IMG/VR virus record: IMGVR_UViG_3300026094_000002
DNA length: 64,000 nucleotides
Reading direction: 5' to 3' (one strand)
From: a virus
Lineage: Duplodnaviria; Caudoviricetes
Shown here in pieces: positions 20,186 to 45,061 of this stretch (positions are counted from its first letter, which is position 1; each line of letters begins with the position of its first letter). The notes under the pieces were generated by a model. It saw only the letters and a list, made by a program, of their open reading frames with translations, was not told the origin of the DNA and did not search any database. The translations under genes were made by a program, and so were the position numbers.

Positions 20186-20494
20186 ATGGATTCAGATATC
20201 ATTTATCAACACGCAAAGGCAAGATTTGACCATGCTCGGTCTCAACAAATCTTGCGTGAAAAATACCAAGCCAAATTACAATTCGCATATAATGGAGGAA
20301 TGTGGGAGGCTGGTCCTTTATTAATCAACACACTAAACTGCATGTTAGATTCAGAAACACTCGTAATTGAAGATTTATATAAAAATCCAGTTAAAGTTAA
20401 TACACAAGAACTTTTAGAAATTGCTAAAACCCACTGGCAAGAACAAATGAACGGTTGGTTGGTTGAATACGAAGAAAACAATAAAGAAAGATGA
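20186..20494 (+). CDS. Hypothetical protein (102 aa)
   Basis: ORF with ATGA overlap into the next gene; first gene of the glyco-locus. Confidence 0.65.
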   Translation: MDSDIIYQHAKARFDHARSQQILREKYQAKLQFAYNGGMWEAGPLLINTLNCMLDSETLVIEDLYKNPVKVNTQELLEIAKTHWQEQMNGWLVEYEENNKER

Positions 20495-21294
20495 AAACTG
20501 GTGCTTTACTCTTTGCCTATAACACGGGTGATACTGATTATCTAAAAATGGCGGAGTTTTCTGCTAAAAATATAAAACGGTGGTTGAACATTCCTACTAC
20601 TGTCGTCACTGATGTTGAATACAAATCATCTACGTTTGATAATATTATTGTAAATGAAAACACAAAGTCTTCCAGAAGATATTTTGATGATAGAAACTCC
20701 GTAGTAGAATGGAGGAACTCAGGCCGTTCTCATGCATATGACTTAACTCCATACGATCAAACTTTATTGTTAGATGTTGATTACATAATTGCCAGCGAAC
20801 AATTACAAACAGTATTGAATAGTTCTTGTGATTTTGTTTGCCCCGATACTGCAATTGAAGTTTCAGGAACAAAAAGCAATAATCCAACATTTGGAAAATT
20901 TCATATGAGAATGTTTTGGGCAACTGTAATAATGTTTAGAAAAACAAAGCACAGCCAAATAATATTTGAACTTATAAAAATGATAGAAAATAATTTTGAT
21001 CATTATGCCAAACTATATGGATTCCCAGAAACACCTTTTAGAAATGATTACGCACTTAGTATTGCTTTGAGTATTGCATCAGGACATTTAGAAACAAAAA
21101 AACATGCAATACCATATCCTATGATTAATATTCATCCAGAACATAATGTTAAGATGATAGACACTGATTGTTTTGAAATAACTTATAAAAAAACAACAAA
21201 AAACCGCGAAAAACTTTTACGCAATAAAATTAAAAATCAAGATGTACATGTAATGGGCAAAACATCACTGGAGAAAATAGTTGAAACCAGTTGA
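20491..21294 (+). CDS. Glycosyltransferase-like protein (GT-A, GT8-like)
   Basis: TPYDQTLLLDVDY (DxD motif); FWATVIMF and FRNDYALSIA segments typical of GT8-like folds. Confidence 0.6.
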   Translation: MKTGALLFAYNTGDTDYLKMAEFSAKNIKRWLNIPTTVVTDVEYKSSTFDNIIVNENTKSSRRYFDDRNSVVEWRNSGRSHAYDLTPYDQTLLLDVDYIIASEQLQTVLNSSCDFVCPDTAIEVSGTKSNNPTFGKFHMRMFWATVIMFRKTKHSQIIFELIKMIENNFDHYAKLYGFPETPFRNDYALSIALSIASGHLETKKHAIPYPMINIHPEHNVKMIDTDCFEITYKKTTKNREKLLRNKIKNQDVHVMGKTSLEKIVETS

Positions 21295-22108
21295 TGATAA
21301 AGGTTATTTAATCACCGCAATAAAGAGTGAAACAACTGATTATCTAACATGTGCCCGGGCATTGGCAAAAAGTATTCGGTATTGGCAACCGGAATCAAAA
21401 ATTTGTCTTCTTACAAATTACGAGCAAGTTGAGAACGATAGCGTATTTGATTATGTAAAAGCGTTTCGGTATTCAATTGACGAGACTAATCCATTTGCAA
21501 ATGATTGGCAAATTTTCTTCTGTAGTCCGTTTCACGAAACAATAAAATTAGAATCTGATATTGTTTTAACTGGTTCAATAGAGCATTGGTGGACACACTT
21601 AAGAAAACGCGATGTTGTTATATCACAAGGATGCAGGAACTTTTATGGACATTGGTCTAAAGAAAGGTTTTACCGCCGGTTATTTGATCAAAACAATTTG
21701 CCTGATGTGTATAATGCAATTACATACTGGAGAATGAGTAAGTTTTCTAAAGAATTCTTTGCTCAAGTCAGACATATTTTTGATAACTGGGATAGTTATT
21801 ACAAATTATTATCTGGAGTTGACAAAGACTTGGTTCCAGACACAGATCTTGTGTATTCAATTGCTGCTGTCATGGTTGGAGAAGAAAATGTAACACTGCC
21901 AAATGCAGAATATCCAAGTTTTGTTCATATGAAAGGAAAGCACAATAATTTCCCCGGTGAAGATTGGACTCGGCATTTGGTATGGGAGTTAGATGAAGGA
22001 CAATTGCGAATTAATACATTTTCTCAACAGCAGCCTGTTCATTATCATGAGAAAACATTCTCACATAAAATAGAGGAACACTATGACCAACTTTTGGCAA
22101 GGTCTTGA
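21281..22108 (+). CDS. Glycosyltransferase-like protein, paralog of the upstream gene
   Basis: SPFHETIKLESD aligns with TPYDQTLLLDVD; DTDLVYSIA aligns with RNDYALSIA; FVHMKG. Confidence 0.55.
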   Translation: MKPVDDKGYLITAIKSETTDYLTCARALAKSIRYWQPESKICLLTNYEQVENDSVFDYVKAFRYSIDETNPFANDWQIFFCSPFHETIKLESDIVLTGSIEHWWTHLRKRDVVISQGCRNFYGHWSKERFYRRLFDQNNLPDVYNAITYWRMSKFSKEFFAQVRHIFDNWDSYYKLLSGVDKDLVPDTDLVYSIAAVMVGEENVTLPNAEYPSFVHMKGKHNNFPGEDWTRHLVWELDEGQLRINTFSQQQPVHYHEKTFSHKIEEHYDQLLARS

Positions 22109-22427
22109 AGAATTTAACCAACAAGAAAACAAACCGGTTGAAATAGAGTTTCGTTTATATTATAATGAGTATGGTTATCCGTTGTTTTATACAACAGAAA
22201 AAGTGTCTGGGAAATATATCGTTATAGACCGAGACACTTATGTTCGTGGAGATTACCAAAACATCAAGGTGAAAGATGGTCGTATTTTACAACAAAACCC
22301 CACTGATTCAATAAAGTTAGTACATGATGATTCGGCGGGAACTTGTTGTTTAAAAAATGACATTACACTAATTGACGAGTCTGGACAGGGACAATATTGG
22401 AAATTAAAAACACATGAATATCGTTGA
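22083..22427 (+). CDS. Hypothetical protein (114 aa)
   Basis: ORF overlapping both neighbours in operon style; GAGGA upstream. Confidence 0.6.
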   Translation: MTNFWQGLEEFNQQENKPVEIEFRLYYNEYGYPLFYTTEKVSGKYIVIDRDTYVRGDYQNIKVKDGRILQQNPTDSIKLVHDDSAGTCCLKNDITLIDESGQGQYWKLKTHEYR

Positions 22428-23337
22428 TATTGCAGATTTGGATTGTATATTTTTAACATATGACGAGCCCAAGAAAGAAGAATTTTGGACTATTGTAAAA
22501 AACACAGTGCCATGGGCAACCCGCGTTGATGGCGTAAAAGGCTCTGATGCAGCACACAAAGCAGCAGCAGAAGCCAGCGAAACTGACCGCTTTATTTTAA
22601 TTGATGGTGACAACCTACCAAATCCAGATTTCTTTGACTTGCAGTTAGAATTTAAAAACGAGCAACAGGAACAAGCAGTTTTTAGATGGAGAGCAAGAAA
22701 TAACATCAACGGATTAATGTATGGAAACGGCGGCATAAGTTCTTGGACAAAAGATTTTGTGCGAGAAATGAAAACTCACGAAAACTCCGATGGTTCTGAC
22801 AAGACCTTAGTAGAGTTTTGTTTTGATGACCGTTATTGGGCAATGCATGACTGTTATTCTACAACATATCCCAACGGTTCGGAATTTCATGCATGGAGAG
22901 CAGGATTCCGCGAAGGTGTTAAAATGTGCCTTGACAGAGGATATTGCCCTTCTGTCTCTGAATTCCGTGACAGAGTACATGATAGAAACCTTGACCACCT
23001 AAATATTTGGCAAAATGTTGGTTTAGATGTTGAATACGGTGCTTGGGCAATTGCCGGTGCTCGTCAGGGAACATTTTTAACAATGTTAGATAATTGGGAT
23101 TACAGAAATGTTCAGGATTTTTCTTACCTCGCTGATTTTTGGAATAGCGAAGTGCAATCTAAAAATCCGCATGATTTGATAAGTGAGTTTGGTGAACGCC
23201 TATGCCAACAATTAGATTTAACTGATAACTTACTTGATGAAAACGCCAGTAAATTTTTTAAGTATCACTATCGTCCAAATTGGAAAAACATTGGACCTAT
23301 GGTAACCGAGCGTCAAGCAATTACTGGTGTCGTGTGA
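22414..23337 (+). CDS. Glycosyltransferase-like protein (GT-A)
   Basis: DCIFLTYDEP, RVDGVKGSDAAH, FILIDGDN (DxD); homologous to the C-terminal domain of 40636..43053. Confidence 0.6.
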   Translation: MNIVDIADLDCIFLTYDEPKKEEFWTIVKNTVPWATRVDGVKGSDAAHKAAAEASETDRFILIDGDNLPNPDFFDLQLEFKNEQQEQAVFRWRARNNINGLMYGNGGISSWTKDFVREMKTHENSDGSDKTLVEFCFDDRYWAMHDCYSTTYPNGSEFHAWRAGFREGVKMCLDRGYCPSVSEFRDRVHDRNLDHLNIWQNVGLDVEYGAWAIAGARQGTFLTMLDNWDYRNVQDFSYLADFWNSEVQSKNPHDLISEFGERLCQQLDLTDNLLDENASKFFKYHYRPNWKNIGPMVTERQAITGVV

Positions 23338-24209
23338 CCGATTCTCAAAAGCCGACTCTTCCTTTTGTTGAAACCATGCTAACTCAAGCGTGTAATCTTT
23401 CTTGCAAAGGTTGTACAAACTTTAGCGATCTCAGTCACAAGGGGTATGTCACATGGGCAGAAGGAAAAGAATGGCTAACCGAATGGAAACAGCGTATAGA
23501 GATCCCAGACTTTGGCATCATGGGTGGCGAACCACTAATAAACCCTGAGTATAAAGATTGGCTTATTGGTGTTAGAGAGATGTTACCAGATAGCCAAATA
23601 AGATTTACTACCAATGGATTATTACTAGAAAAACACTGGGATGTATTAGATGTTATACAAGACATTGGTAATACAGTTTTTAAAATAACTGTTCATGTGG
23701 ATGACAAAAAATTAGAAAACACGATCCAAAAAATATTTGAAAAATATGACTGGGAACCAGTATTTGAATTTGGAATTCATCGTTGGGCCACAAAAAACGG
23801 GCTGCGGTTTCAAATAAACCGCCCGGACAAATTTATTAAAACTTTTAAAAATGATTATTCTCACATGTCGCCATGGCATGCTAACCCAAAGGATGCATTT
23901 GACAACTGTATACAGCAGACATGCCCTCTATTGCATAATGGAAGAATTTACAAGTGTAGCACTTCTGCTTTAATAAAAGACACACTAAGTCGTTATGACT
24001 TTCCAAATTGGAAAGAGTGGGAGCCATACATGTCAGAAGGAATACATTGGACAAGTGATGATACCCAAATTGACACTTTTATTAATAACTTTGGCAAGCC
24101 AAATAAAATATGTGCCCAATGCCCATCAGCCAGTCAAACAGATTCTATAGTTGACCACAAGATATATGTAAGTACCCGCAAAGTGAAAAAGTATATTACT
24201 AATGAGTAA
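23334..24209 (+). CDS. Radical SAM protein 1 (probable GTG start at 23334)
   Basis: CNLSCKGC (CxxxCxxC), MGGEP, FTTNG; extra C-terminal Cys (TCPLL..GRIYKC, ICAQCP); GTGA overlap with the previous stop. Confidence 0.9.
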   Translation: MTDSQKPTLPFVETMLTQACNLSCKGCTNFSDLSHKGYVTWAEGKEWLTEWKQRIEIPDFGIMGGEPLINPEYKDWLIGVREMLPDSQIRFTTNGLLLEKHWDVLDVIQDIGNTVFKITVHVDDKKLENTIQKIFEKYDWEPVFEFGIHRWATKNGLRFQINRPDKFIKTFKNDYSHMSPWHANPKDAFDNCIQQTCPLLHNGRIYKCSTSALIKDTLSRYDFPNWKEWEPYMSEGIHWTSDDTQIDTFINNFGKPNKICAQCPSASQTDSIVDHKIYVSTRKVKKYITNE

Positions 24210-25623
24210 AAATAATTCAGGCGATGAAGTAGATAACAACTTCAAGTCAAAATTTCTTTCTGATGCCGAAAAAATGAAGGAAAAGTTGGACGATGTCAGT
24301 CCGTCTATGTGTCTTGCTAAGTGGAAGCAAGTTAGTCTTCACTTAACAACTGGTCACAACAATAGTTGTTATCATCCTCCATTGCATAAAATTGATGCCA
24401 GTGAAATAACAAAAAATCCTGCAGCATTGCATAATACTCAACACAAAAAACAACAGCGTAAGTTAATGCTGGGAGGCACTCGTCCAACGGAATGTAGTTA
24501 CTGTTGGGCAATGGAAGATAATAATAAATTGAGCGACCGACATTATCGCTCTGGAGAACCGTGGGCTGCAGAACATTTTGATAATGTAGTCAATGCAGAC
24601 TGGGATGCTGATGTAACTCCAAGTTATGTTGAGGTAAATTTTAATTCTGCTTGTAATTTAAAATGTAGTTATTGTAGTCCGCAGTTTTCTACTACATGGA
24701 TGGAAGAAATAGATAAGCACGGTGCATATCCTACGTCTGTACCACATAATGCTCCTGAATATTTTAACGGTGATAGACGCAGAATTCTAAACCGTGAGTC
24801 TAATCCTTATGTAGACGCATTTTGGAAGTGGTGGCCAGACTTGTATCCAGAACTAAAGCATTTTAGGATGACAGGTGGTGAACCTCTTATGGATAAAAAT
24901 ACCTATCGTGTATTTGACCATGTTTTGGAAAATCCAAAATCTGATTTGCATCTAGCGGTGACAAGTAACTTTTCTGTCAATCAAAAATTATGGGACAAGT
25001 ACAAACAGTATGTAAGCAAGTTGTGTGAAGGTGAAACAATAGAACATTACATGCAATATGTCAGTGTTGATACATGGGGTGCCCAAGCAGAGTATGTTCG
25101 AAATGGGCTAGATTTTGGTCTACTATGGGATCGTGTTCATGAATTTTTAAATGATATTCCATACAGAAATTCTCTTACGTTTATCATAACTATGAACAAT
25201 CTATCTGTTCCTAATCTGGATAAACTTCTAGAGGGAATTTTAGAACTAAGAAAAACATATAGCGACACTTATCAGAGAATCTGGTTTGATACGCCAGTGT
25301 TGCACACACCAAAATGGCAAAGTATGCAAGTGCTTCCAGATAGCTATGCGTTTAAATTAAAAAAAATTAAACAGTGGATGGAAGAAAACATTGAAACAGA
25401 ACAATCTAGATTCCATGGGTTTAAGGATTACGAAATCAATAGACTAGATCGTGATATTGCATGGATGCAAGAAGAATTAAACGAAGAAGACAAAAAGCAG
25501 AGAATGGCTGATTTTTATAGATTTTTTTCTGAGCACGATTCCAGACGTTCAACAAATTTTATAGAAACTTTTCCAGAGATGTCAGAGTGGTGGCAACAGT
25601 GCAGGTACTCTGCAAATGCATAA
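24202..25623 (+). CDS. Radical SAM protein 2 with an N-terminal Twitch/SPASM-like domain
   Basis: CLAKW..SCYHP..CSYCW upstream of CNLKCSYC; TGGEP. Confidence 0.9.
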   Translation: MSKNNSGDEVDNNFKSKFLSDAEKMKEKLDDVSPSMCLAKWKQVSLHLTTGHNNSCYHPPLHKIDASEITKNPAALHNTQHKKQQRKLMLGGTRPTECSYCWAMEDNNKLSDRHYRSGEPWAAEHFDNVVNADWDADVTPSYVEVNFNSACNLKCSYCSPQFSTTWMEEIDKHGAYPTSVPHNAPEYFNGDRRRILNRESNPYVDAFWKWWPDLYPELKHFRMTGGEPLMDKNTYRVFDHVLENPKSDLHLAVTSNFSVNQKLWDKYKQYVSKLCEGETIEHYMQYVSVDTWGAQAEYVRNGLDFGLLWDRVHEFLNDIPYRNSLTFIITMNNLSVPNLDKLLEGILELRKTYSDTYQRIWFDTPVLHTPKWQSMQVLPDSYAFKLKKIKQWMEENIETEQSRFHGFKDYEINRLDRDIAWMQEELNEEDKKQRMADFYRFFSEHDSRRSTNFIETFPEMSEWWQQCRYSANA

Positions 25624-27346
25624 TACTTTTTCTTACGAAAATATAACAGAATTTCAAATTGAGGTAACCACACATTGTAATGCTGCTTGTCCACAATGTC
25701 CTAGGAATATTAATGGTGGAGAGACAAACCCATACCTTGAGGTTCAACATCTCAGTAGAGAAGTAATTGATTCTACTTTTGACGAATCTTTATGTAACCG
25801 CCTAAAACAAATATTTTTCTGTGGAAGTTACGGTGACCCGATTGTTCATCCTGAGTTTTTGAATATAATAAAAGATTTTAGAAAAAAATCTGATACCTTG
25901 TGGATTTATATTCATACCAATGGTGGAGTAAGAAATACAGAGTGGTGGAAAGAACTTGCTGAGACTATTGGCGATTATGGAAAAATTGATTTTAATATTG
26001 ACGGGCTAGATGATACGAATCATTTATATAGAAGAAATGTATCATTTGATAAAGCAATGGAAAATGCAAAAGCATTTATAACTGCCGGAGGCAAAGCACA
26101 ATGGAATTTTATTGTGTTCAAACACAACGAACACCAAGTTGACACTGCAAAAATGATGAGTAATTTGTGGGGATTTGAGAATATTGTCTTTCGTGGTACT
26201 GGGAGATTTCTTGATCATAAGACACTAGAAAAATCTGATGAGTGGAAGGTCACCCCAAAAAGAGGAACGGAGTACTATCTTAAACCAACAGATATTAAAA
26301 GGTATTCAAATCAAAGCATTGAAAATTTGCCAAATCTAAAAAAACAATACACAGATATTAAAGACTATTTTGATAAAACGCCAATAAAATGTGATGCTTT
26401 AACTGGAAAAAAGGCAGTAATAACAGCAGAAGGATTAGTTCTGCCTTGTAATTTTTTTGAACATAATTTATATGATGCGAGGTTCAAAGACGAAAGTGTA
26501 ATGCCCCGGGCAAACGAATTGCATTATGATGAAAACGGCAATAATCAAGTTGAAGAATTTATTAAAAAGTACGGAAAACAGAATCTAAGTATATATCACA
26601 ATTCATTAAAAACTATATTCAAAAATCCGTTTTGGGATGATCTTATAGATTCATGGAATAAAGATATTGACAATGGAAGATTATTTGAATGTGCATTTAC
26701 TTGTGGACAGAAATTAACTAAAACATGGGATCAAAATAAAACAGTGGCTAATACATATAGATATTATATTACAGGTGATAACAGAGGTTTAGGAAAGGCA
26801 TTAAAAGAACATTTCTACGGTGATGGCTCTAGCAGAAGCACAGGATATGATATAACTAATCCAGAGCATATCAAATTAATTGCAAAAGAATCATTGCATT
26901 ATGATGTTTTTATCAATAATGCATTTGATGGTCCACCAGATGAAGATTGGGCAAATTTTGCTCAGATTAATCTTCTTCATGCAGTATTTGATGAATGGAA
27001 ATTACATGAAAAAACTGGATGGATATTTAATATTGGTAGTATAGCAGAAAAAGCAATTGTTGCAGCAGAGCCAAAATGGGAAAGATACAGAGTAGCAAAG
27101 AGTGCATTGAGTTATGCCAGCAAACAATCAAGTACTGCTTTTAAAAATAATCTTGTAAATTTTAAGACAACACTAATAACACCTGACAGGTTAGACACAG
27201 AATTATCAAGATCAAAGCCAACATGGACTGGTAATGGCATCTCTTGTGATGATATTATCAGGTTTATAGAATATTGCACATCAATATCTTCTAACACGGT
27301 AGTTGACGAAATCTCATTATCGGTTAACTTTGATTACCAAAACTAA
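25616..27346 (+). CDS. Radical SAM protein 3 (C-terminal SPASM-like Cys) fused to a short-chain dehydrogenase domain
   Basis: CNAACPQC, IHTNG, KCDAL..GLVLPC..ECAFTC; then ITGDNRGLG, FINNA, NIGS, YRVAK. Confidence 0.85.
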   Translation: MHNTFSYENITEFQIEVTTHCNAACPQCPRNINGGETNPYLEVQHLSREVIDSTFDESLCNRLKQIFFCGSYGDPIVHPEFLNIIKDFRKKSDTLWIYIHTNGGVRNTEWWKELAETIGDYGKIDFNIDGLDDTNHLYRRNVSFDKAMENAKAFITAGGKAQWNFIVFKHNEHQVDTAKMMSNLWGFENIVFRGTGRFLDHKTLEKSDEWKVTPKRGTEYYLKPTDIKRYSNQSIENLPNLKKQYTDIKDYFDKTPIKCDALTGKKAVITAEGLVLPCNFFEHNLYDARFKDESVMPRANELHYDENGNNQVEEFIKKYGKQNLSIYHNSLKTIFKNPFWDDLIDSWNKDIDNGRLFECAFTCGQKLTKTWDQNKTVANTYRYYITGDNRGLGKALKEHFYGDGSSRSTGYDITNPEHIKLIAKESLHYDVFINNAFDGPPDEDWANFAQINLLHAVFDEWKLHEKTGWIFNIGSIAEKAIVAAEPKWERYRVAKSALSYASKQSSTAFKNNLVNFKTTLITPDRLDTELSRSKPTWTGNGISCDDIIRFIEYCTSISSNTVVDEISLSVNFDYQN

Positions 27347-27347
27347 T

Positions 27348-28691: not shown

Positions 28692-29692
28692 CTGTACAAG
28701 TAGAGGTTAATGACAATCATGATTTTTGGTTTCATAATGAATCAATAAATCAAATAATCTCAGAACTTATTAACAATGGGCGTGTAACCATAAACTTTAA
28801 TACAGAAGGGCCGTGTGTAAAATCAATGGGACTTTATGAGTTTCTTGAAAATATATCAAGCAATTTAAACATACCTCATAATAATATAGAAATACGAACA
28901 CACAATCAAGTAGAATACCACCCAACATTTAAAATAACTAAACTTCCTCTGGCACATTCTCTGCCCACTGTTCAAAATGAATTGTTTTTTGATGAAAACA
29001 AGCATATGAAGAGTTTTAGTGATAAATCTTTTAAAAAATTTGCTTGTTTTGTTGGAAGAAATTCATGGGATAGGTTACGGATTTCTAGCAGACTTTATAA
29101 AGAATATAAAGAAGAAAGCATCCAAACATATCATTTAAATATAGATGATAAAAAGTCCCTTGAAAGAAGTATTCTTGGTGTTGATACTATTATTAGCAAT
29201 TCTGCTAGTATTGACACTGCGAAAGATGCTTTAAACTTTTTGACAGAATGTCCTTTTAATGGACCAGATAATATAAATCAATATCCGATAACAGTTGATT
29301 CTAATTTAAACATTGATAGTGAGTATTATCGTTTTTTTCTAGAAGTTGTGTGTGAAACTTATATCAAGGGAAATACATTTTTCCCTACAGAAAAAACGTG
29401 GCGTCCTATTGCACTTAAAACCCCATTTGTTGTCAATGGGCCAGTTGGCTTCTTAAAGAATTTAAAGAAATTGGGATTCAAAACATTTGATAGGTGGTGG
29501 GAAGAATCTTATGATTATAATGGGCATGAAGCGAGAATAGAAAAGATTTTTAAAATTATAGATTATATTTCTACTCTATCAATATCAGAATTAAATACCA
29601 TGTATAATGAAATGCAAGATGTTCTAGAGCATAATTATCAGATTCTTTATAAATTAACACTAGAAGATTTTAAAAAAGTATTTCATTATTGA
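28688..29692 (+). CDS. GT-B/GT10-like 'TEK' glycosyltransferase paralog 1
   Basis: VVCETY..FPTEKTWRPIALKTPFVV..LKKLGFKTF..WEESYD. Confidence 0.55.
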   Translation: MTVQVEVNDNHDFWFHNESINQIISELINNGRVTINFNTEGPCVKSMGLYEFLENISSNLNIPHNNIEIRTHNQVEYHPTFKITKLPLAHSLPTVQNELFFDENKHMKSFSDKSFKKFACFVGRNSWDRLRISSRLYKEYKEESIQTYHLNIDDKKSLERSILGVDTIISNSASIDTAKDALNFLTECPFNGPDNINQYPITVDSNLNIDSEYYRFFLEVVCETYIKGNTFFPTEKTWRPIALKTPFVVNGPVGFLKNLKKLGFKTFDRWWEESYDYNGHEARIEKIFKIIDYISTLSISELNTMYNEMQDVLEHNYQILYKLTLEDFKKVFHY

Positions 29693-29710
29693 TTATTAGG
29701 GATTTATTTT

Positions 29711-30521: not shown

Positions 30522-30523
30522 GA

Positions 30524-36996: not shown

Positions 36997-38158
36997 GTTG
37001 GTCAACGATATGTTGAATATTCTCGCGGATTCTGGAAGAGAACGCATACTGGTTATAGATTATATCTGGGTAGCACTCGTAAAATAATTCCTTTAATCCG
37101 TGATTTTTTATTCTTTTTATTTCTGCTGATAGTGCTTTCCAGCGTTCAGTGTTGTCTTCTATTTCATCATAATCATTATTCAAAACATAATCAAATGTTT
37201 TGTAACCCAAACTTCTTAAAAGTTTTAAACTATGTGCAGTACCAGCAATTAAGAAAGGTTGTCCAAACTTTATAGGCTTGAGTGTTTTTTCTGTTAGAAA
37301 TGTCCCACCGCTTCCATCAGCATCAAAGTGTGTTTCTAATACAATATTAAAATACGATTTTCTATATAAATCTTCATTGACCCAGCGATGATTGTTGTGT
37401 GTTTTTTCATCATCATATAGATATGGACCACCGGCAACAAATTCTTTTACTCTGTCTCCTTTTAATTTTAATACCGATAAATCAATGGGGTTTTGATCAA
37501 ATGGATCACCGATATCATAATTTGTATTATAACTCCATATGCTGTTATCTAATGCTCCTTTACGTATCAGATCTGCATAACATGTGGCCCTCCACCATTT
37601 ATGCGTTCTTGATAACATAGAAAAATCAAATTCTTTTTCTCTTCTCGTACTTAAAAAAGAACTTTGACTTCGGTTGATGTTAGCAAAAAACGATTCATGA
37701 TCATTATAATAGATAAAATTTTCTATATTATTTGCGGCAGTATTTGCACTAACAAAAACATAACAATCATTTGGTAATTGATGTTTTTCTATTAAAAAAT
37801 CAATTCTTTCTTTTATATGATATGGATTGTCTGCTTCATGATAATAAAATAGTATTTTAATTTCACTGTTTTTAATTCGCTTAATACTATTATTTGGAAT
37901 CAAATCAATATAGTCACAATCAAAATCAAACCAAGAAAATGCTATTGGATACCAAGAGCCATTAGGTGCAGAATCAACAGAGGTTTCTTTGAATAAAAAT
38001 CCATTATCATTAAAAAATTTTATTATTCTCAACTTGACAGTGTTCGGCCAGATATGGTCCCATTTTCTCCAAGAGTGTCCAAATTTGGCAAGGTTGGGGT
38101 ATCCAACTCCATTGTCATATACTCTATCGTAACAAAAAACTAAATCGGTTTCTTTCAT
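36980..38158 (-). CDS. GT10-like 'TEK' glycosyltransferase paralog 2
   Basis: NIVLETH..FLTEKTLKPIKFGQPFLI..LGYKTF..NDYD. Confidence 0.55.
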   Translation of the reverse strand: MKETDLVFCYDRVYDNGVGYPNLAKFGHSWRKWDHIWPNTVKLRIIKFFNDNGFLFKETSVDSAPNGSWYPIAFSWFDFDCDYIDLIPNNSIKRIKNSEIKILFYYHEADNPYHIKERIDFLIEKHQLPNDCYVFVSANTAANNIENFIYYNDHESFFANINRSQSSFLSTRREKEFDFSMLSRTHKWWRATCYADLIRKGALDNSIWSYNTNYDIGDPFDQNPIDLSVLKLKGDRVKEFVAGGPYLYDDEKTHNNHRWVNEDLYRKSYFNIVLETHFDADGSGGTFLTEKTLKPIKFGQPFLIAGTAHSLKLLRSLGYKTFDYVLNNDYDEIEDNTERWKALSAEIKRIKNHGLKELFYECYPDIIYNQYAFSSRIRENIQHIVDQLNYKQ

Positions 38159-39528
38159 TGTTGTAACTTACTTATTAAGTCAGTGAGTCTTTCTTTTTTG
38201 GATTCTAAAAATAGTTTGCTGTTGTGTGTAATTTCTGGTTTTAAATCAAGGTATAATTTGTGCAATCGGTGATCTGGCATAGAAGCAATTTCAGAACACA
38301 ATTCAATTACTGCCTCCATTCTTTTTTGGTCATTTTCTATGTCATCGTATGATTCATCAATAACACGATCAAATGTTTTATATCCAAATTTTTTTAATTC
38401 TTTGAGCGTATGCGGCGGTCCTACAACAATAAAAAATTGATTGTGGCATATGGGTTTTATAATTTTTTCTGTTAAACAAGTTCCAATATTGTCTTGCATA
38501 TTAAAATATGTTTCTACAACAAAATTGCAGTAACTTTTTTCAAAATGTTCCTTATTCAAACTTTCAAAAGAATTATGGTCAATATCATTCAATGAGTCTG
38601 CTTTAAATGGTCCATCTGCTAAAAAGTTTTGAATGAGTCTATATTTTGATTCAATGAATTCTCTGTCAAAGGGTTGGCAACTTACTTCATCACTTTCTTT
38701 TCCCTGAGATATTTGGTTGTAACTAAAAAACCCTTGGTCATGTACTCCTGCCCTCCACAATTCTCCCATAAAGATTGCTCGCCAGAGTTTGTGAATTCTT
38801 ACTAATGCAGTAAATTTTTTCTCTCTCTTTTCTTCATGATATGGAACAATATTTTCTTTTTGTTGAGATCTACGATATAATAATTCATCATCAAAAAAGT
38901 AATAAAAATTTTCTATTTTGTCCGCGTATGTATTACCAGAAACGAAATGAATTCTTTCTATATCTATATCATGTTTTTGACACAAGGTTGATAGCGATTT
39001 TTTTATTTCTATAGGGTTATCTGCCTCATCATAAAAAAACAAAACATTTATTTCATTTCTTTTTAATCGGGCATATGCTTCGTTTGAAATCTCAGAAAAA
39101 TAATCAAAATCTGGGTGAAATATATTTAATCCTATAATATAAAAACTATCTATTGGTGCTTCACTTATCTTCCATAATTTGTATGGGACACCTTCATCAT
39201 ACAAATAATCTATTAGTCTAACGTGCTCAGTATTTGGATATGTAGTACTAAACTCTCCCCAACTGTCATACCCATAAACTCCATTATGGCGTGTGCATGT
39301 AGGATATGGAATTTCTCTAAAACCGTGTCTTTCTTTTTGTGACTTTGGATCAAGTTTTACTTTGCGACATATCGTTTTAAAATCATCAGATAAATTTTCA
39401 AACTCTGAAAATGATTTTAATTCTGGCCAATGGGGTTTTTTGTTTGTGTTGTAAATATCTACCCAGTTGTCTTCTAACCATTGTATGTCTAAATTATATA
39501 ATGTAAAATCGCAACACAGATTAATCAT
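38155..39528 (-). CDS. GT10-like 'TEK' glycosyltransferase paralog 3
   Basis: NFVVETY..CLTEKIIKPI..FGYKTF..DESYD. Confidence 0.55.
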   Translation of the reverse strand: MINLCCDFTLYNLDIQWLEDNWVDIYNTNKKPHWPELKSFSEFENLSDDFKTICRKVKLDPKSQKERHGFREIPYPTCTRHNGVYGYDSWGEFSTTYPNTEHVRLIDYLYDEGVPYKLWKISEAPIDSFYIIGLNIFHPDFDYFSEISNEAYARLKRNEINVLFFYDEADNPIEIKKSLSTLCQKHDIDIERIHFVSGNTYADKIENFYYFFDDELLYRRSQQKENIVPYHEEKREKKFTALVRIHKLWRAIFMGELWRAGVHDQGFFSYNQISQGKESDEVSCQPFDREFIESKYRLIQNFLADGPFKADSLNDIDHNSFESLNKEHFEKSYCNFVVETYFNMQDNIGTCLTEKIIKPICHNQFFIVVGPPHTLKELKKFGYKTFDRVIDESYDDIENDQKRMEAVIELCSEIASMPDHRLHKLYLDLKPEITHNSKLFLESKKERLTDLISKLQQ

Positions 39529-40637
39529 GAATTAATGTCCTTTTTTATATTGTTTAGCATAGATGTTAATTCTTTCCATAAGATATTCTTAAAAACTCCG
39601 TTATAAAAATGATTATAATTAAATTTTAATGTTGGAATCATATGTTTATACATTTGATTTAATTCTTTAGGAGTAAGATCGTCTAAATTTTTGGTTAATT
39701 TTGCTATTTTTTCAATTCTCAAAATATCATCTTCTTCGGTATCGTAATCTTCAGACCAGAATTCTGAGAATGTTTTAAATCCATATGATTTCAAATATTC
39801 TAAACTATATGCAGTAGAAACAAGAATAAATGGCATATACATACAAATTGGCTTGAATATTTTCTCTGTAAGATGATTTCTTTTTCCAGAAAAAACAGTT
39901 TCTGTAACAATGTATGCGAGGGATTCAAAAGACTGATCAAATAATCCAAGCGTATAACTTTCCATTGGATGATTTTCTTCACCTGAAAAGTTCCATGGTA
40001 AATTAACAGAGCCTAAAACTTTTTCAATATCTGGATATGTATTTCTATATCTTCTTCCAATTTTTGATGCGAACTCATTTTCATATGGGCAAACTTGTGG
40101 CATACTAATTTTTGCATTGGTAATATTGTTTTTTACCATATTGTAGAACAGTAGTACTCTGTGGTTTCTCTTGCCGCCTATAATCCTATTAGGACTTATA
40201 AAACTTGATTTTATTTTTCTTGACTCTGGGGGTTCAATAGTGAAATCATAGTTAAAACCTCTAAACCATTCTAATGCCGCCCATCCATGAAAAAAATAGT
40301 AATAATCATCCCAACCATATATGTTGCAGACCTCATTAACTTCATCGCTATTTTTTTCACTGTGAATTAATATTTTTTTGTTTGAATTAAAATTATCAGT
40401 TATATCTTTATTTCTTTTTTCAACATCATCAAAAAGCGGTTTATGCACATCTAAAAATATTGGCTCTTGGTCGTGAAGGAATATATAATTATATTCAGTT
40501 ATATCATGACCATAATTCATTAAGTTTTCGGGGTCAGTTGTCCCCGGCGGATCACAAAAAAATAACCGAGTTTTAGGGATATTCTTATCAATATAATTTT
40601 TGAAAATATTAACGTAAATTTCTTCTATTCTTATCAT
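39525..40637 (-). CDS. GT10-like 'TEK' glycosyltransferase paralog 4
   Basis: YIVTETV..HLTEKIFKPICMYMPF..YGFKTF..SEDYD. Confidence 0.55.
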   Translation of the reverse strand: MIRIEEIYVNIFKNYIDKNIPKTRLFFCDPPGTTDPENLMNYGHDITEYNYIFLHDQEPIFLDVHKPLFDDVEKRNKDITDNFNSNKKILIHSEKNSDEVNEVCNIYGWDDYYYFFHGWAALEWFRGFNYDFTIEPPESRKIKSSFISPNRIIGGKRNHRVLLFYNMVKNNITNAKISMPQVCPYENEFASKIGRRYRNTYPDIEKVLGSVNLPWNFSGEENHPMESYTLGLFDQSFESLAYIVTETVFSGKRNHLTEKIFKPICMYMPFILVSTAYSLEYLKSYGFKTFSEFWSEDYDTEEDDILRIEKIAKLTKNLDDLTPKELNQMYKHMIPTLKFNYNHFYNGVFKNILWKELTSMLNNIKKDINS

Positions 40638-43053
40638 GTTTGATGTATTTTACTTTGATAAAAAGCCAAACGTGTTTTCTCATGAAATCCACGTGAAAAG
40701 TATAGATGAGGCTAGAGAAAAATCTAAAACCAGATACTTTTGGATTTTGAATTACTTATCAGACTATTCTTGCTTTGATTTTATTTGGGAACCCGTTCCG
40801 TGGGAAAGTGAGTTTATTCACGCTTGGCCAAGCCAGTGGCAAAAAGATGGTCAAACATATCTAGTACCAAAAGAAAAATCTGTTGGCACAAAATACCACA
40901 AAAATATTATCCCTAGAATACTATCAGAAAAAAATTGGGAAATACCAAAAGATTGTATTGATGATAATTTTGATTTTACTTGGCATCCAGACCCAACTGA
41001 ACCACCATACATATATCAATTCGGTACTCAACACCAAAAGACAGGTGGCCCTAGATATGTCGTTCCCAATGCAACAGAAGTAAAATATGAAAGAAGCACA
41101 ATAGTTAAAAAAACTTCCATTGATAATAACTGGGAAATCCCCTCTGATATTGATGTAAATAATTTTGACTTCACATGGCACCCAGACGAAACAGAATCAC
41201 CATACATATATCAATTCGGTACTCAACACCAAAAGACAGGTGGCCCTAGATATGTCATGGAAGGTGCGACTGAAACAAAATTTATACGTGGCATAAAAGC
41301 CAAAAAAACCTCTATAGATGATAATTGGGAAATTCCTACAGGTGTCACATTTGAAGAGTTTGATTATACTTGGCACCCAGACGAAACAGAATCACCATAT
41401 ATCTATCAATTCGGCACTCAACACCAAAAGACAGGTGGTCCTCGGTATAGAATGTCTGGTGCCACAGAAACAAAATTTATACGCGGGATAAAAGCCAAAA
41501 AAACTTCTATTGATGATAACTGGGAAGTATCACCAGACATTGATGTGGAAAACTTTGATTACACTTGGCACCCGGATGAAACGGAATCACCATATATCTA
41601 TCAATTCGGCACTCAGCACCAAAAAACTGGCGGACCTAGATATATCACAAAGGGTTCTACAGAAACAAAATTTGTTCGGAATATATACGCTAATGTTAAA
41701 AGCAGTCCGGCAAAAAAAGTTTTTTTCATTGATCATTATGACGGGAACATTGACAAATCAATAGAATCTGTCAATTCTACAGACCTAGAAATATTAAAGA
41801 CACGGTATTCGTCAAATTATTTGAGTACAATAAGAAGAATAGCAAAGAAAGTTGGCGATGATTCTGAATACATTTGGATTTGTTCTTCGGTTTGTGATTA
41901 TACTGATTTTAATTTTTCTTGGCACCCAGAGCAGTGGCAGAGCAACATGGTCCATGTATTTCCAAGTAATGAGCAAAAATTCGGAGATACTTTTTTTATT
42001 CATGTGCCTTCAATCTTGGATCAATTAGATGTAGAATTATTAGAATGGCATAATATAAATTTTCTATCTGACATCTCAGTACCTAGATGGAATTGTCCAG
42101 AAGTAAAACACGATGATGATAGCCATATTGATGTGATAAAAAATCAAAATTTGCTGGCACCATTAACAATATTCTCTTGCGATAATGTCAATACTGATGA
42201 TATTAAAAATACCCCAACTGTTCCACTATGGGAAGAAAAAACAAAAACAATAGTACCACTATCAGATGGGGGATCTTCAGTTATAGTTCCCAGAGAAAGT
42301 ATTGCTTTTATTAATGATCAATTATATGATTATCCTTATATAGATAAAACTTTTTCTGGGATATGCGATGATAAACCATTAGACATTGTTTTTATATCTA
42401 ATGGTGAAACTAATGCAGAAGAAAACTGGGAACATTTACTCAGTGTTACTGCTGATAAATCAAATAGGGTTGCGAGAGTAGATGGTATAAATGGGCGTGT
42501 AGCGGCTTATCAGGCTGCTCTTGAGGAAAGTAATACCGACTGGGCATTTTGTGTGTTTGCTAAATTAAAAGTCAATCCAGAGTTTGATTGGTCGTGGCAA
42601 CCTGATAGAATGCAACAAAGAAAGCATTATATATTTCATGCAAAAAATCCAGTCAATTTTCTGGAATATGGTCATATGGCAATGATCGCATATAACAAAA
42701 AATTAACACTTCAAAACACAGGGGGTGGATTAGATTTTACACTTGACCAAGAACATGATGTAGTGCCACTACTAAGTGGAACAGCGGAATTCAATAATGA
42801 TCCGTGGATGACATGGAGAACGGCATTTAGAGAGTGTTTAAAGTTGCGTGATAGTTTGCCAAATATTGAAAACGAATATCGCTTAGAAACATGGCTTTCT
42901 GTCGGTGATGGCAATAATGGAGATTGGAGTGTCCGTGGTGCAGAGGATGCAGTGAGATATTACGAATCAGTGAATGGTGACTTTGAAAAACTCAAGTTAA
43001 GTTATGAATGGAAGTGGTTACAAGAGTTTTTTAATCGCGAGTACTCTCAATAA
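40636..43053 (+). CDS. Multi-module glycosyltransferase-like protein with four 65-aa tandem repeats
   Basis: C-terminal DIVFISNGE..RVDGINGRVAAY..WRTAFRECLK is homologous to 22414..23337; internal repeats. Confidence 0.7.
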   Translation: MFDVFYFDKKPNVFSHEIHVKSIDEAREKSKTRYFWILNYLSDYSCFDFIWEPVPWESEFIHAWPSQWQKDGQTYLVPKEKSVGTKYHKNIIPRILSEKNWEIPKDCIDDNFDFTWHPDPTEPPYIYQFGTQHQKTGGPRYVVPNATEVKYERSTIVKKTSIDNNWEIPSDIDVNNFDFTWHPDETESPYIYQFGTQHQKTGGPRYVMEGATETKFIRGIKAKKTSIDDNWEIPTGVTFEEFDYTWHPDETESPYIYQFGTQHQKTGGPRYRMSGATETKFIRGIKAKKTSIDDNWEVSPDIDVENFDYTWHPDETESPYIYQFGTQHQKTGGPRYITKGSTETKFVRNIYANVKSSPAKKVFFIDHYDGNIDKSIESVNSTDLEILKTRYSSNYLSTIRRIAKKVGDDSEYIWICSSVCDYTDFNFSWHPEQWQSNMVHVFPSNEQKFGDTFFIHVPSILDQLDVELLEWHNINFLSDISVPRWNCPEVKHDDDSHIDVIKNQNLLAPLTIFSCDNVNTDDIKNTPTVPLWEEKTKTIVPLSDGGSSVIVPRESIAFINDQLYDYPYIDKTFSGICDDKPLDIVFISNGETNAEENWEHLLSVTADKSNRVARVDGINGRVAAYQAALEESNTDWAFCVFAKLKVNPEFDWSWQPDRMQQRKHYIFHAKNPVNFLEYGHMAMIAYNKKLTLQNTGGGLDFTLDQEHDVVPLLSGTAEFNNDPWMTWRTAFRECLKLRDSLPNIENEYRLETWLSVGDGNNGDWSVRGAEDAVRYYESVNGDFEKLKLSYEWKWLQEFFNREYSQ
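40933..41712 (+). repeat. Four in-frame 195-bp tandem repeats (NWEIP..FD[F/Y]TWHPD.TE.PYIYQFGTQHQKTGGPRY)
   Basis: The WHP Trp codons fall at 40981, 41176, 41371 and 41566, exactly 195 bp apart. Confidence 0.95.
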
Positions 43054-44110
43054 CAGATTCACCAATATACTCTACTTCACTGTCTGATAACTCTGGATAG
43101 CAAGGCAAACTTAGCACACTTCTAGATAACATACTAGCAGTGCTAATCATCCCCGGATTTGGATACTTTTTAAATGCAGGTAACTCAAATAGTGGCTTGT
43201 CATAATGTATCTTTGTTTCAATGTCTTTATCAGCGAGTTTTTGTTTGATTTTGTTTCTCTCGCTATGTGATATAACAAACTTATGAAACCCATGATCACT
43301 GATAGAGTTGACAAGAACATTAATACCATTTTTTTCAAATATGCGGTACCAATATGAAAAAATCTCCCGACGACGATCCTGCCATTCATCAATATATTTT
43401 GACTTTACCATGAGTTGAGCACAATCTACCTCACTCATTCTCAAGTTACTGCCTGTTTGATAATTATTTGGTTTGCCATTATTACGATATTGTTTTGCAA
43501 AAAGTGCAAAACTTTCATCATTAGTAACTACTGCCCCACCGTTAGCATAATTGCCAAAATTTTTAGTAGGATCAAAACTTAAGGCTGCAGCAATTCCGCA
43601 TCGTTGAGAATTGTTTGCCAGCCAGTGCTGTGCTGCATCTTCTATCTCAACAGCAGTTTTATGTTTTGCCAATGCATTACGAACATCGCCGCCATACAGT
43701 CCGACTAATACTATTAAATGTGGGTCAATATCACTCTGAATAGAATCTGGTTTTATTATTCCATACTTGTCTACATCTGCAAAACAAATTTTCCAACCAG
43801 AATTAGCAAATGCATTTGCTGTAGCAGAATATGTCAATGACGGTAGTACTACTATTGGTGTTGTAGAATCATCATATTTAAGCATGTTATACATGGCGTA
43901 CTTTGCTATTAATTCTAACGCAACAGTACCGCTTGTGCATGTCACTGCATAACGATTACTATTTTTATTTGCTAACCATGTCTCAAACCGCTCAGTGAAG
44001 GGGCCATCCATAAGAATGCCACTGGAGAGAACTTTATCAGTAGCGTCTAGTATTTCTTCTCGCAGATTTTTATACTGACGTTCTATGTTTGAGAATGGTA
44101 TGAAACTCAT
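43031..44110 (-). CDS. DegT/DnrJ/EryC1/StrS PLP-dependent sugar aminotransferase
   Basis: CTSGTVAL, EDAAQH, SFDPTKNFG..NGGAV (PLP lysine), LSLPCYPEL. Confidence 0.92.
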   Translation of the reverse strand: MSFIPFSNIERQYKNLREEILDATDKVLSSGILMDGPFTERFETWLANKNSNRYAVTCTSGTVALELIAKYAMYNMLKYDDSTTPIVVLPSLTYSATANAFANSGWKICFADVDKYGIIKPDSIQSDIDPHLIVLVGLYGGDVRNALAKHKTAVEIEDAAQHWLANNSQRCGIAAALSFDPTKNFGNYANGGAVVTNDESFALFAKQYRNNGKPNNYQTGSNLRMSEVDCAQLMVKSKYIDEWQDRRREIFSYWYRIFEKNGINVLVNSISDHGFHKFVISHSERNKIKQKLADKDIETKIHYDKPLFELPAFKKYPNPGMISTASMLSRSVLSLPCYPELSDSEVEYIGESVIESTRD

Positions 44111-44119
44111 TTAAAATAA

Positions 44120-45061
44120 TTATTGATTGATTAAATAGTCATAAGTTTTTTCTAACCCAATTTCTATATCAACTGTTGGATTATAACCAAGTAAAGACTT
44201 GGCTTTGTTAATATCTAACGTTCCGCGACTTGGATAAGAGTTATCTGGGTTGTTCATTTTGATTTCACCACCACCAGCGATAGCAGTGGCAATTTGTGCA
44301 GCATCATATATAGTCCGTGCAGAACCACGGGTCATGTTGAAAGTTTGATTCTCTGATTCTTTCTTTTCTGTTGTTAGTGCAATTCCAGACACTAAATCAC
44401 TTATGTATGTAAAGTCTATAGATTCATCTTTGCCATTTACAGTAAGTGTTTTGTTATCGTTTGCCGCAGACAAAAACTTTGGAACTATCCGGTCGCTAAT
44501 ATCATTTGACCCATATACAGCACTTGGGCGAATTATCGTGTATGGCACTGACATCTTAGATGACCAATCTTTAACTAAATTTTCACCTGCAAGTTTAAGT
44601 ATGCCATATTGACCTTTTGGATTGCACGGAGAATCCTCGGTAACTGAACCAGAAAAATCGCCATACACCATACTAGAACTAACAAATATAAATTTGCCAA
44701 CGTTGCTACATGCTTGTAATAAGTTTATATTACCTTCAATCATGGTTCTTGCAGCAAGTGCTGGGTTTTTGGAAACAGTTTTTTGACGTGGAAAACTGGC
44801 TAGATGTATAACCACATCATAGGAGTTGACATTAAAGATAGATTGGAAGTCGGCATAATCATTTATATCGGCTCGGTAAATAATTACGCTTTTTGGGATT
44901 GTTTTTAGCCTACTAGAAACTAATCGCCCAACTTCTGCAGAGTTGACCGAACCATAATCAGTGACATTGTCAATTATTGATACTTGATGGCCTAGGTGGC
45001 ACAAGTGTTGAACAAGATGGTGGCCTATAAAACCTAGGCCACCAGTTACCATTATTTTCAT
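44120..45061 (-). CDS. NAD-dependent NDP-sugar epimerase/dehydratase
   Basis: VTGGLGFIG, VIHLAS, SSSMVYG, YGILK (YxxxK), RPSAVYG, DFTYISD. Confidence 0.92.
   Translation of the reverse strand: MKIMVTGGLGFIGHHLVQHLCHLGHQVSIIDNVTDYGSVNSAEVGRLVSSRLKTIPKSVIIYRADINDYADFQSIFNVNSYDVVIHLASFPRQKTVSKNPALAARTMIEGNINLLQACSNVGKFIFVSSSMVYGDFSGSVTEDSPCNPKGQYGILKLAGENLVKDWSSKMSVPYTIIRPSAVYGSNDISDRIVPKFLSAANDNKTLTVNGKDESIDFTYISDLVSGIALTTEKKESENQTFNMTRGSARTIYDAAQIATAIAGGGEIKMNNPDNSYPSRGTLDINKAKSLLGYNPTVDIEIGLEKTYDYLINQ

Follow-up and report, generated by a model that had tools for sequence, protein, structure and literature searches.

Within a window of 64,000 nucleotides (nt), the whole stretch of DNA analysed here and part of the 194,522-bp IMG/VR virus record IMGVR_UViG_3300026094_000002 (CheckV completeness 56%), we examined a locus at positions 20186-45061 in which genes for radical S-adenosylmethionine (SAM) enzymes stand beside genes for glycosyltransferase (GT)-like proteins and an O-carbamoyltransferase. 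The locus comprises 23 open reading frames (ORFs) of at least 80 aa and one overlooked ORF of 38 aa (Table 1). From its first base to position 35378, seventeen plus-strand genes abut or overlap one another, followed by the 38-aa ORF (micro-ORF) and the carbamoyltransferase gene, where each start overlaps the preceding stop. Three GT10-like genes (36980-40637) on the minus strand are convergent with the carbamoyltransferase side, the gene of a repeat protein diverges from them, and a DegT-type aminotransferase gene together with a short-chain dehydrogenase/reductase (SDR)-type epimerase gene, again on the minus strand, runs on into thyX. Upstream of the module lie a baseplate wedge gene (phrog_10646), an ORF of 4662 aa and fibre-like genes, one of them with a Peptidase_G2 intramolecular-chaperone domain, as expected from the tail-gene context given in a preliminary description of this DNA. 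Public runs containing the window sequence are labelled as soil, lake-water and other aquatic metagenomes, and a megablast search of the locus against 50,697 phage records returned no match.

Table 1 Features of the locus, with positions in the window and the evidence for each assignment
Feature	Position	Strand	Status	Evidence
Intrinsic terminator between fibre genes and module	20123..20151	+		11-bp stem, then T-run
A102, small soluble protein, first operon gene	20186..20494	+	core	conserved along whole length in 15 orthologs; no Pfam/PHROG match
B267, paralog of C275	20491..21294	+	core	paralogy E 3e-5; 31% identical to RsoM2USA ORF353
C275, paralog of B267	21281..22108	+	core	28% identical to RsoM2USA ORF352
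D114, conserved small soluble protein	22083..22427	+	core	ortholog alignment; no Pfam family match
E307, GT-A-like (nucleotide-diphospho-sugar transferase fold)	22414..23337	+	core	weak fold support; DGD nearly invariant
rS0, generic radical SAM	23280..24209	+	accessory cassette	PF04055 E 4e-14; matches in 7/80 related loci
T1, N-terminal-twitch radical SAM	24202..25623	+	core	NF033640 324 bits; orthologs 55-71% identical in 77/80 loci
rS-SDR, radical SAM/SPASM-like fused to classical SDR	25616..27346	+	accessory	PF04055 E 2e-12; 3/80 loci
T2, N-terminal-twitch radical SAM, closest paralog of T1	27303..28691	+	core	NF033640 314 bits; 35% identical to T1
G0, GT10-like paralog	28688..29692	+	accessory cassette	C-terminal homology to G1-G3, TEK motif; presence varies among loci
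DUF6356 small protein	29711..29953	+	accessory	PF19883 E 8e-14; 1/80 loci
Hexapeptide (left-handed beta-helix) sugar N-acetyltransferase-like protein	29928..30521	+	accessory	PF00132 E 1e-17
T3, N-terminal-twitch radical SAM	30524..31813	+	core	NF033640 432 bits; orthologs 66-75% identical in 80/80 loci
T4, N-terminal-twitch radical SAM	31813..33021	+	core	NF033640 359 bits
T5, N-terminal-twitch radical SAM	33014..34324	+	core	NF033640 288 bits
H361, acidic orphan protein	34293..35378	+	core	in 63/80 loci at >=40% identity
Micro-ORF, 38-aa basic protein ending ...RKRDPFIYK	35378..35494	+		translationally coupled to H361 and carbamoyltransferase
O-carbamoyltransferase (NodU/CmcH/TobZ family)	35491..36996	+	core	PF16861 E 2e-51 (174.1 bits), PF02543 E 1e-35 (123.9 bits)
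G1, GT-B glycosyltransferase, GT10-like	36980..38158	-	core	AlphaFold2 (AF2) model, predicted local distance difference test (pLDDT) 92.7
G2, GT10-like paralog	38155..39528	-	core	34% identical to G1 over 384 aa; TEK motif
G3, GT10-like paralog	39525..40637	-	core	C-terminal homology; TEK motif
R805, repeat protein with E307-like C-terminal domain	40636..43053	+		195-bp tandem repeat x 3.8
DegT/DnrJ/EryC1 sugar aminotransferase	43031..44110	-	accessory	PF01041 E 3e-56; 5/80 loci
Extended SDR NDP-sugar (nucleoside-diphosphate-sugar) epimerase/dehydratase	44120..45061	-	accessory	PF01370 E 9e-42

Seven genes of the locus are matched by Pfam PF04055, in agreement with the seven radical SAM enzymes counted previously. 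Five of them (T1-T5) match the NCBIfam model NF033640 (N_Twi_rSAM, twitch domain-containing radical SAM protein) end to end and are full-length members with 288-432 bits against a curated cut-off of 170 bits, while rS0 and rS-SDR score 29-33 bits and are non-members. In T3-T5, Pfam places SPASM at residues 9-98, ahead of Radical_SAM at about 120-315. C33, C94, C97, C148, C152 and C155 (three N-terminal cysteines plus CxxxCxxC) and a GGEP motif are invariant in the T1-T5 family, and C52 is present in at least 90% of the sequences. At E 1e-30 or better, the NF033640-type family numbers 7,562 representatives of clusters formed at 50% identity. Tandem fusions, double or triple and 790-1466 aa in length, are common among its members (P0123-P0272); an N-terminal extension (130-160 aa) is shared by about eleven representatives, and Sel1/TPR-like extensions are seen in others. 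When 200 sequences were placed in a tree, T1 and T3 joined cellular genes before each other (support 0.90-0.98). T2 and T5 also group first with cellular sequences, but at unsupported nodes (0.05-0.06), the nearest neighbours of T5 being genes of a Bdellovibrionota cassette at a weakly supported node, and T4 pairs first with another copy from its own genome. From this tree, the T paralogs look old and distinct. Here, five distinct subfamilies of NF033640 are found in fixed order within one phage operon. Among the two non-members, rS0 has its best PDB match in 7wzv, an entry not traced to a paper, and rS-SDR contains all of the SDR motifs TGxxxGxG, NNA, NIGS and YxxxK and a weak SDR match at residues 418-531, which accounts for the SDR domain noted before.

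We counted gene presence in 80 related loci and rechecked gene order in 80 further loci (L090-L169); core collinearity was determined in 69 non-redundant loci, of which 43 cover the region and 14 have enough downstream sequence. By these comparisons, the locus consists of a conserved core into which variable genes are inserted, and is carried by an uncultured clade of jumbo myoviruses of about 340 kb. T1-T5, H361 and the carbamoyltransferase occur in the same order in 40 of the 43 informative loci, convergent GT10-like genes follow the carbamoyltransferase in 14/14 loci with sufficient sequence, and R805 is present in 8 of these 14. The order giant protein-U200-U478-U329-A102-B267-C275-D114-E307-T1...-carbamoyltransferase recurs across the 80 further loci, exceptions being occasional undetected fibre-type genes and contig ends. 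A102, B267, C275, D114, E307, T1-T5, H361, the carbamoyltransferase and the convergent GT10-like genes therefore form the core. Between E307 and the carbamoyltransferase, 33 loci have five radical SAM genes, 8 have six, 4 have seven and 2 have eight, and the inserted cassettes always consist of extra N-twitch radical SAMs, GT10-like genes or SDRs. This restriction to three classes is the pattern expected of a pathway whose product is under diversification.

Synteny across relatives, named as a check in the preliminary description, was accordingly found for the core genes and not for the amino-sugar genes, rS0 and rS-SDR, which are strain-specific. In particular, the proposed Pgl-like branch making an N-acetylated amino-deoxy sugar is not part of the conserved system: DegT is found in 5/80 loci, matches to the epimerase gene occur in 16/80 but reach 40% identity in two and represent real orthologs in two or three, and the acetyltransferase occurs in at most one.

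At least 119 relatives of T3 are present in viral contigs. Four relatives have genomes of 337-347 kb that are 98-100% complete, terminal repeats being present in two, and each encodes 7-16 members of the N-twitch family, of which 5-6 lie inside the module and the rest are scattered; the record studied here has seven. Two of the latter (70477-71625 and 99784-100884) are single genes far from sugar gene clusters, and the 347-kb complete relative has up to 10 further scattered ones. Eight contigs assigned to metagenome-assembled genomes (MAGs; L170-L177) contain the phage module, wholly or in part, at 40-70% identity under the labels Haliscomenobacter, Legionellales, Rickettsiales, Betaproteobacteria TMED41, Pacearchaeota, Porticoccaceae and Flavobacterium; these "bacterial" and "archaeal" contigs are almost certainly jumbo-phage contigs mis-binned into MAGs. 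The C-terminal parts of the 4662-aa ORF (2871-16859, plus strand) are 30-56% identical in nearly all related loci. A pelagiphage identity, considered because of curli genes and a permuted tmRNA, was dropped in view of the soil, lake and other aquatic runs that hold the sequence and of the relatives of about 340 kb.

The glycosyltransferase-like genes fall into several groups. Four paralogs (G0-G3) had been described as GT10-like, and this description stands. The model of G1 yielded exclusively GT-B proteins as top Foldseek matches, several of them GT10 (E about 1e-4, TM-score 0.40-0.45), among them FUT13, FUT9, Helicobacter pylori FucT, SenB and BshA and also the T4 beta-glucosyltransferase. 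All four paralogs share an ET.F...TEK..KPI motif that is invariant across the family and that may correspond to the GT10 FucT motif (acidic-x-x...TEK). Because none of them is matched by the Pfam GT10 model (PF00852) and the Atlas feature score of the family to GT10 clusters is just 0.80-0.81, we refer to them as GT10-like and not as members. G1 has more than 1300 metagenomic homologs devoid of a Pfam domain, and in other viral protein clusters the GT10-like fold adjoins a protein that also bears an NDP-sugar epimerase domain, and one with a methyltransferase domain.

Of three genes previously called GT-A-like, E307 has weak fold-level support. Its model (AF2 pLDDT 71.7) retrieved mostly GT-A glycosyltransferases and related sugar nucleotidyltransferases in Foldseek, the best being PBCV-1 A64R at a weak E of 0.017, and VIA gave Z 6-7.3 over residues 1-145 for a fold that is common to sugar nucleotidyltransferases. 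E307 has 404 relatives in viral contigs. In one of the N-twitch family representatives (P0235), an E307-type domain and an N-twitch radical SAM enzyme are naturally fused, which ties the two protein classes together. The C-terminal domain of R805, the repeat-containing GT of the preliminary description, is indeed homologous to E307 (E 5e-17), with the DGD replaced so that it lacks a DxD. For B267 and C275, the other two putative GT-A genes, no supporting match was obtained: B267 has none in Pfam, PHROGs or a PDB profile search, the single match of C275 is to the function-less phrog_1903 with none in Pfam or the PDB profile search, and hhalign found no relation of the pair to E307 or to a 246-aa protein behind the Bdellovibrionota cassette. 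PDB-sequence profile searches of E307, H361 and B267/C275 gave matches at chance level only. H361 is matched in neither Pfam, PHROGs nor the PDB profile search, the Atlas offered no usable match and a poor stored model, and hhalign detected no relation to the GT10-like family.

The carbamoyltransferase, predicted earlier to be of NodU type, contains both domains of the family, the Kae1-like Carbam_trans_N and the YrdC-like Carbam_trans_C. Its closest solved relatives are NovN (E 3e-51), GdmN and TobZ (E 1e-36), and since it misses the NodU equivalog cut-off (128 versus 1000 bits) we regard it as a family member and not as NodU itself. The acetyltransferase, DegT aminotransferase and epimerase/dehydratase assignments were likewise reproduced. 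The acetyltransferase is nearest to TIGR03570 (NeuD/PglB/VioB) at 88.8 bits, below the cut-off of 160.8. DegT is closest to scyllo-inositol transaminase and the 3-aminotransferases QdtB and WbpE and more distant from PglE-type enzymes. The closest PDB entries of the epimerase are the family of 6zl6, presumably a UDP (uridine diphosphate)-glucuronate 4-epimerase, and UDP-glucose/UDP-hexose 4-epimerases.

The preliminary description saw no obvious precursor of a ribosomally made, post-translationally modified peptide (RiPP), and so passed over the micro-ORF, which fills the 112-bp "gap" ahead of the carbamoyltransferase gene and overlaps both neighbours; that its product is modified is conjectural. 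A 33-aa version occurs in 31 related loci, and the micro-ORF is also found behind the last T gene of divergent modules (L172, L173, L175). In its C-terminal 21 codons, 27 DNA versions differ pairwise by 3064 synonymous and 471 non-synonymous codon differences (about 6.5-fold), and these 21 residues are 89% identical to the window version, compared to 57-71% for the flanking enzymes. From these alignments, the C-terminal part of the micro-protein is the best-conserved piece of the block among the compared genes and under strong purifying selection. It matches no Pfam family, and the micro-ORF was not found near the cellular cassettes, in Vibrio phage K566 or in Ralstonia phage RsoM2USA (see below). 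A three-chain prediction of H361, the carbamoyltransferase and the micro-protein gave a contact score of 0.38 (best control 0.00), on a scale whose mark is reached by 51/78 solved complexes and 2/108 mismatches and on which passes of up to 0.60 are more often wrong than right. The partners had a pLDDT of at least 64, the runs shared at least 33% of contacts, and the signal was lost when the carbamoyltransferase was replaced. The modelling thus lends weak support, as a lead, to a contact between micro-protein and carbamoyltransferase.

Transcription timing was judged from sequence motifs in the stretch of 90 nt ahead of the orthologs of A102 and U478 in loci L090-L169. A late-type ATAAATA motif precedes the fibre gene U478 in 59/60 loci and A102 in 1/64. 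In front of A102, a hairpin with T-run terminator is present in 54/64 related loci and a TA[TC]AAT box ending 5-7 nt ahead of the ATG in 50/64, 40 of the 50 together with a -35-like hexamer; the window itself has the terminator and a poorer -10. The T4-type late promoter TATAAATA occurs at one site in the 64 kb, which is below chance, and nowhere ahead of the operon. Terminator and sigma70-like box in place of the late motif suggest that the module is a separate transcription unit with a nearly leaderless, non-late start.

In the 50,697 deposited phage records, E307 was found in Ralstonia phage RsoM2USA only. This cultured jumbo myovirus of 343.8 kb (MG752970; PMC8504454) has the same local gene order, giant virion protein - structural genes - B267 - C275 - E307 - T1 - E307', at 28-38% identity, with the homologs of E307 and T1 adjacent. 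Mass spectrometry identified its ORF356, ORF359 and ORF361 as virion proteins (PMC8504454), and the module-homologous genes are all annotated as hypothetical. ORF361 (2541 aa) is the positional counterpart of the 4662-aa ORF, and the two show no sequence match. Unlike the clade described here, RsoM2USA has two N-twitch radical SAMs in its whole genome and no T2-T5 ortholog, H361, micro-ORF, carbamoyltransferase or GT10-like match in the 25-kb region examined. The clade is distantly related to RsoM2USA, whose version of the module is reduced. A cluster of four N-twitch radical SAMs was also detected in a non-structural region of Vibrio phages K566 and K567.

For the scan of prokaryotes we used a narrower N-twitch alignment, as a single radical SAM query found nothing and a wide alignment was too diverse. 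It revealed 424 relatives in prokaryote genomes; of these, the eight nearest loci represent phage contigs that were placed in MAGs, and the rest are mostly from Bdellovibrionota. The cellular loci are tandem arrays with up to ten N-twitch genes per 21 kb. Such arrays (L178-L248, e.g. L189, L216, L225) belong to Bdellovibrionota and some Bacteroidota and Acidimicrobiales. In 71 loci with 977 ORFs, 259 ORFs fall into one radical SAM cluster (N-twitch and rS-SDR-type genes). Sugar-type partners are GT2, GT4, UDP-glucose dehydrogenase, SDR epimerases, carbamoyltransferases and E307-like genes; others are further radical SAMs (some B12-binding) and a weak QueC-like PP-loop protein. A recurrent four-gene cassette (T2-, T4-, T5- and T1/T2-like) lies in one locus beside a carbamoyltransferase and two SDRs.

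Islands of this type have been met in the literature in passing only, and no reaction of them has been studied. Pelagimyophages and cyanomyophages have a host recognition cluster with glycosyltransferases (Zaragoza-Solas et al. 2020, PMC7029224), and a T4-like environmental genome has 12 radical SAM genes (Nishimura et al. 2017, PMC5332604). Like the present locus, these large islands lie behind a giant structural gene and tail fibres and contain glycosyltransferases and "radical SAM cassettes". They were described as hypervariable and left undissected, whereas we find a strictly conserved collinear core, and in a jumbo phage of about 340 kb from soil, lake and other aquatic metagenomes instead of a marine SAR11 phage of about 150 kb. 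New in the present work are the separation of core from accessory genes, the micro-protein, the contrast between promoters, the E307-radical SAM fusion and the cultured relative RsoM2USA.

Several viruses glycosylate virion proteins by soluble glycosyltransferases and sugar-nucleotide enzymes without host membrane pathways, as exemplified by PBCV-1 A64R and its partners in chloroviruses, the fibril glycans of Mimivirus and the glycosylated virions of mycobacteriophages. A64R is the top, although weak, structural match of E307. To our knowledge, none of these systems includes radical SAM enzymes or a carbamoyltransferase, and we know of no virus-encoded glycan machinery that uses radical SAM chemistry; for the present phage, virion glycosylation is a proposal. 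The chemistry has precedents: the twitch radical SAM enzyme BtrN acts on an aminocyclitol, the radical SAM dehydratase AprD4 and the reductase AprD3 deoxygenate an aminoglycoside sugar, and TobZ, NovN and NodU O-carbamoylate sugars or sugar-bearing products. T1-T5 would resemble these enzymes in twitch-type radical chemistry on sugar-like substrates, rS-SDR mirrors the pair of radical SAM enzyme and reductase, and the carbamoyltransferase is a TobZ homolog. The twitch domain is, however, C-terminal in BtrN and N-terminal here, with marginal similarity (E 0.04), and unlike aminoglycoside tailoring the locus has no cyclitol pathway.

With a probability of roughly one half, we propose that the locus encodes a pathway of soluble enzymes that assembles a glycoconjugate in the cytoplasm and tailors it by radical chemistry, with a phage protein as the likely acceptor. 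A sugar substrate is favoured by the constant company of GT-like genes, the E307-radical SAM fusion and the sugar enzymes beside the cellular arrays, which make a glycan product plausible. The sugar context on which the preliminary description had built holds, in this clade and in unrelated cellular loci. All 23 module proteins are free of transmembrane segments, and neither phosphoglycosyltransferases (PGT; PF02397, PF00953) nor Wzx (PF01943) were found in the 194-kb record, which is 56% complete, in line with the earlier statement that polysaccharide export genes are missing. Since no lipid-carrier or export function was found and the module has a fixed place behind virion genes, a phage protein is favoured as acceptor.

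Every step of the following scheme is drawn from sequence, models and context. E307, the GT10-like G0-G3 and perhaps B267 and C275 would build an oligosaccharide from nucleotide sugars in the cytoplasm. No lipid carrier or exporter would be needed, and the most likely acceptor would be a protein of the phage, such as the fibre or the giant virion proteins whose genes lie just upstream. T1-T5 may contribute one radical C-H activation step apiece, with the sugar or glycoconjugate as substrate; candidate reactions include epimerisation, oxidation, dehydration and C-C/C-methyl chemistry. The carbamoyltransferase would attach an O-carbamoyl group, probably together with the conserved micro-protein. 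The strain-specific cassettes (rS-SDR, DegT, acetyltransferase, epimerase and extra GT10-like or radical SAM genes) could vary the product, with the rS-SDR fusion acting like the AprD4/AprD3 deoxygenation pair.

Several observations weigh against this proposal. Twitch/SPASM enzymes act more often on peptides than on sugars, NF033640 is a sequence definition of which no member has a known reaction or substrate, and the profile matches of the N-twitch enzymes to solved structures cover the generic radical SAM core only (a RiPP maturase as the best match, viperin, MoaA, BlsE). No fold could be assigned to B267, C275 or H361. Joint expression with the virion genes is not indicated, as a TATAAT-type box and not ATAAATA precedes the operon, and no public RNA run holds the window sequence. 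Among the cellular partners there are also methyltransferases, Asp/Asn-hydroxylase-like oxygenases and B12 radical SAMs, which would suit the tailoring of a peptide just as well, and in one Bdellovibrionota locus (L200) the four-gene cassette lies beside an integrase and conjugation/type IV secretion genes with no sugar gene nearby. The non-late promoter, the context in K566 and this sugar-free cassette speak against a simple story of fibre glycosylation.

Alternatively, the enzymes might remodel the host envelope by altering lipopolysaccharide, capsule or another glycan of the cell surface during infection, in the sense of serotype conversion or superinfection exclusion, via the lipid carrier, flippase and ligase of the host. 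Such a function has been suggested for the glycosyltransferases of the pelagimyophage host recognition cluster (PMC7029224), the sigma70-like rather than late promoter of the relatives fits early action, and the peripheral glycosyltransferases of O-antigen synthesis are likewise soluble. We nevertheless consider it unlikely, given that no initiating PGT, Wzx or membrane protein was found in the module or the 194-kb record and that the core of the module is kept across a diverse clade and, in reduced form, in a Ralstonia phage, whereas host-specific surface-modifying genes are usually patchy. As related radical SAM clusters occur in a Vibrio phage as well, the family is not bound to a single host envelope.

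A pathway centred on a peptide is unlikely, too. Here, the micro-protein would be substrate or scaffold, modified by T1-T5 as in the maturation of pyrroloquinoline quinone (PQQ), mycofactocin or RiPPs and then decorated by the glycosyltransferases and the carbamoyltransferase. The purifying selection on the micro-ORF, whose C-terminal residues are better conserved than any compared enzyme, its Tyr-containing tail and its retention right behind the last T gene of divergent modules are points in favour of such a role, as are the typically peptide-acting twitch/SPASM enzymes with their RiPP maturase match and the size of A102 and D114, which corresponds to chaperones of the RiPP recognition element (RRE) type. 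In mycofactocin biosynthesis, a small peptide goes together with a radical SAM/SPASM enzyme and a glycosyltransferase. Yet Pfam detects no RRE/PqqD domain, protease or exporter in the 23 proteins, and the micro-protein is very basic, lacks Cys and is invariant, with no leader/core pattern to be seen. RsoM2USA, K566 and the cellular cassettes lack it but do have radical SAMs, and the sole, weak complex signal depends on the carbamoyltransferase and not on a radical SAM enzyme. We judge it decidedly unlikely that T1-T5, the glycosyltransferases and the carbamoyltransferase act jointly on the 33-38-aa micro-protein to give a glycosylated, carbamoylated, peptide-derived product, cofactor-like as mycofactocin or PQQ or a glycopeptide; if so, this product would be a new class of viral natural product.

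Decoration of the bases of the phage genome against restriction appears very unlikely. Radical SAM enzymes take part in some thymidine hypermodifications, the promoter is of an early type, thyX adjoins the locus, and the enzymes are soluble and come without export genes. However, a ThyA-like pyrimidine hydroxymethylase (PF00303) was not found in the record or in the four 98-100% complete relatives (TET/JBP routes were not searched), and about eight GT-like genes are far above any known DNA glycosylation system. The T4 beta-glucosyltransferase among the GT-B matches of G1 is just one of many generic ones. A diffusible secondary metabolite directed at competitors or the host, such as an aminoglycoside-like pseudo-oligosaccharide, is highly improbable: the TobZ-like carbamoyltransferase, scyllo-inositol transaminase-like DegT, twitch radical SAMs and radical SAM-SDR pair do recall an aminoglycoside-tailoring set, and a similar trio in a cyanophage was labelled "antibiotic synthesis genes" (PMC12801897), but we saw neither a cyclitol synthase nor an exporter or resistance gene, DegT and radical SAM-SDR, the aminoglycoside-like genes, are accessory and not core, and there are too many glycosyltransferases.

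Whatever the product, five non-redundant subfamilies are fixed in order in a widespread jumbo clade, and the same family is arrayed in predatory Bdellovibrionota. One solved reaction would provide an annotation for thousands of genes, and could expose new radical chemistry on sugars or peptides and show to what end large phages devote about 7% of their genome. RsoM2USA offers a tractable, cultured entry point, and the micro-protein a concrete biochemical hypothesis.

Two minor observations concern possible other functions and the region beyond the locus. PADLOC assigned no defence-system membership; the similarity to pVip is weak, of partial length and confined to the radical SAM core (E 1e-5 to 6e-11). 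Downstream of thyX (47233-50065, minus strand) lie a DUF2201 metallopeptidase/VWA-like gene (47233-48468), a small ORF and an ATPase gene (phrog_1297; 48974-50065), an arrangement of VWA-like and ATPase genes that presumably resembles a MoxR-type ATPase with its VWA partner.

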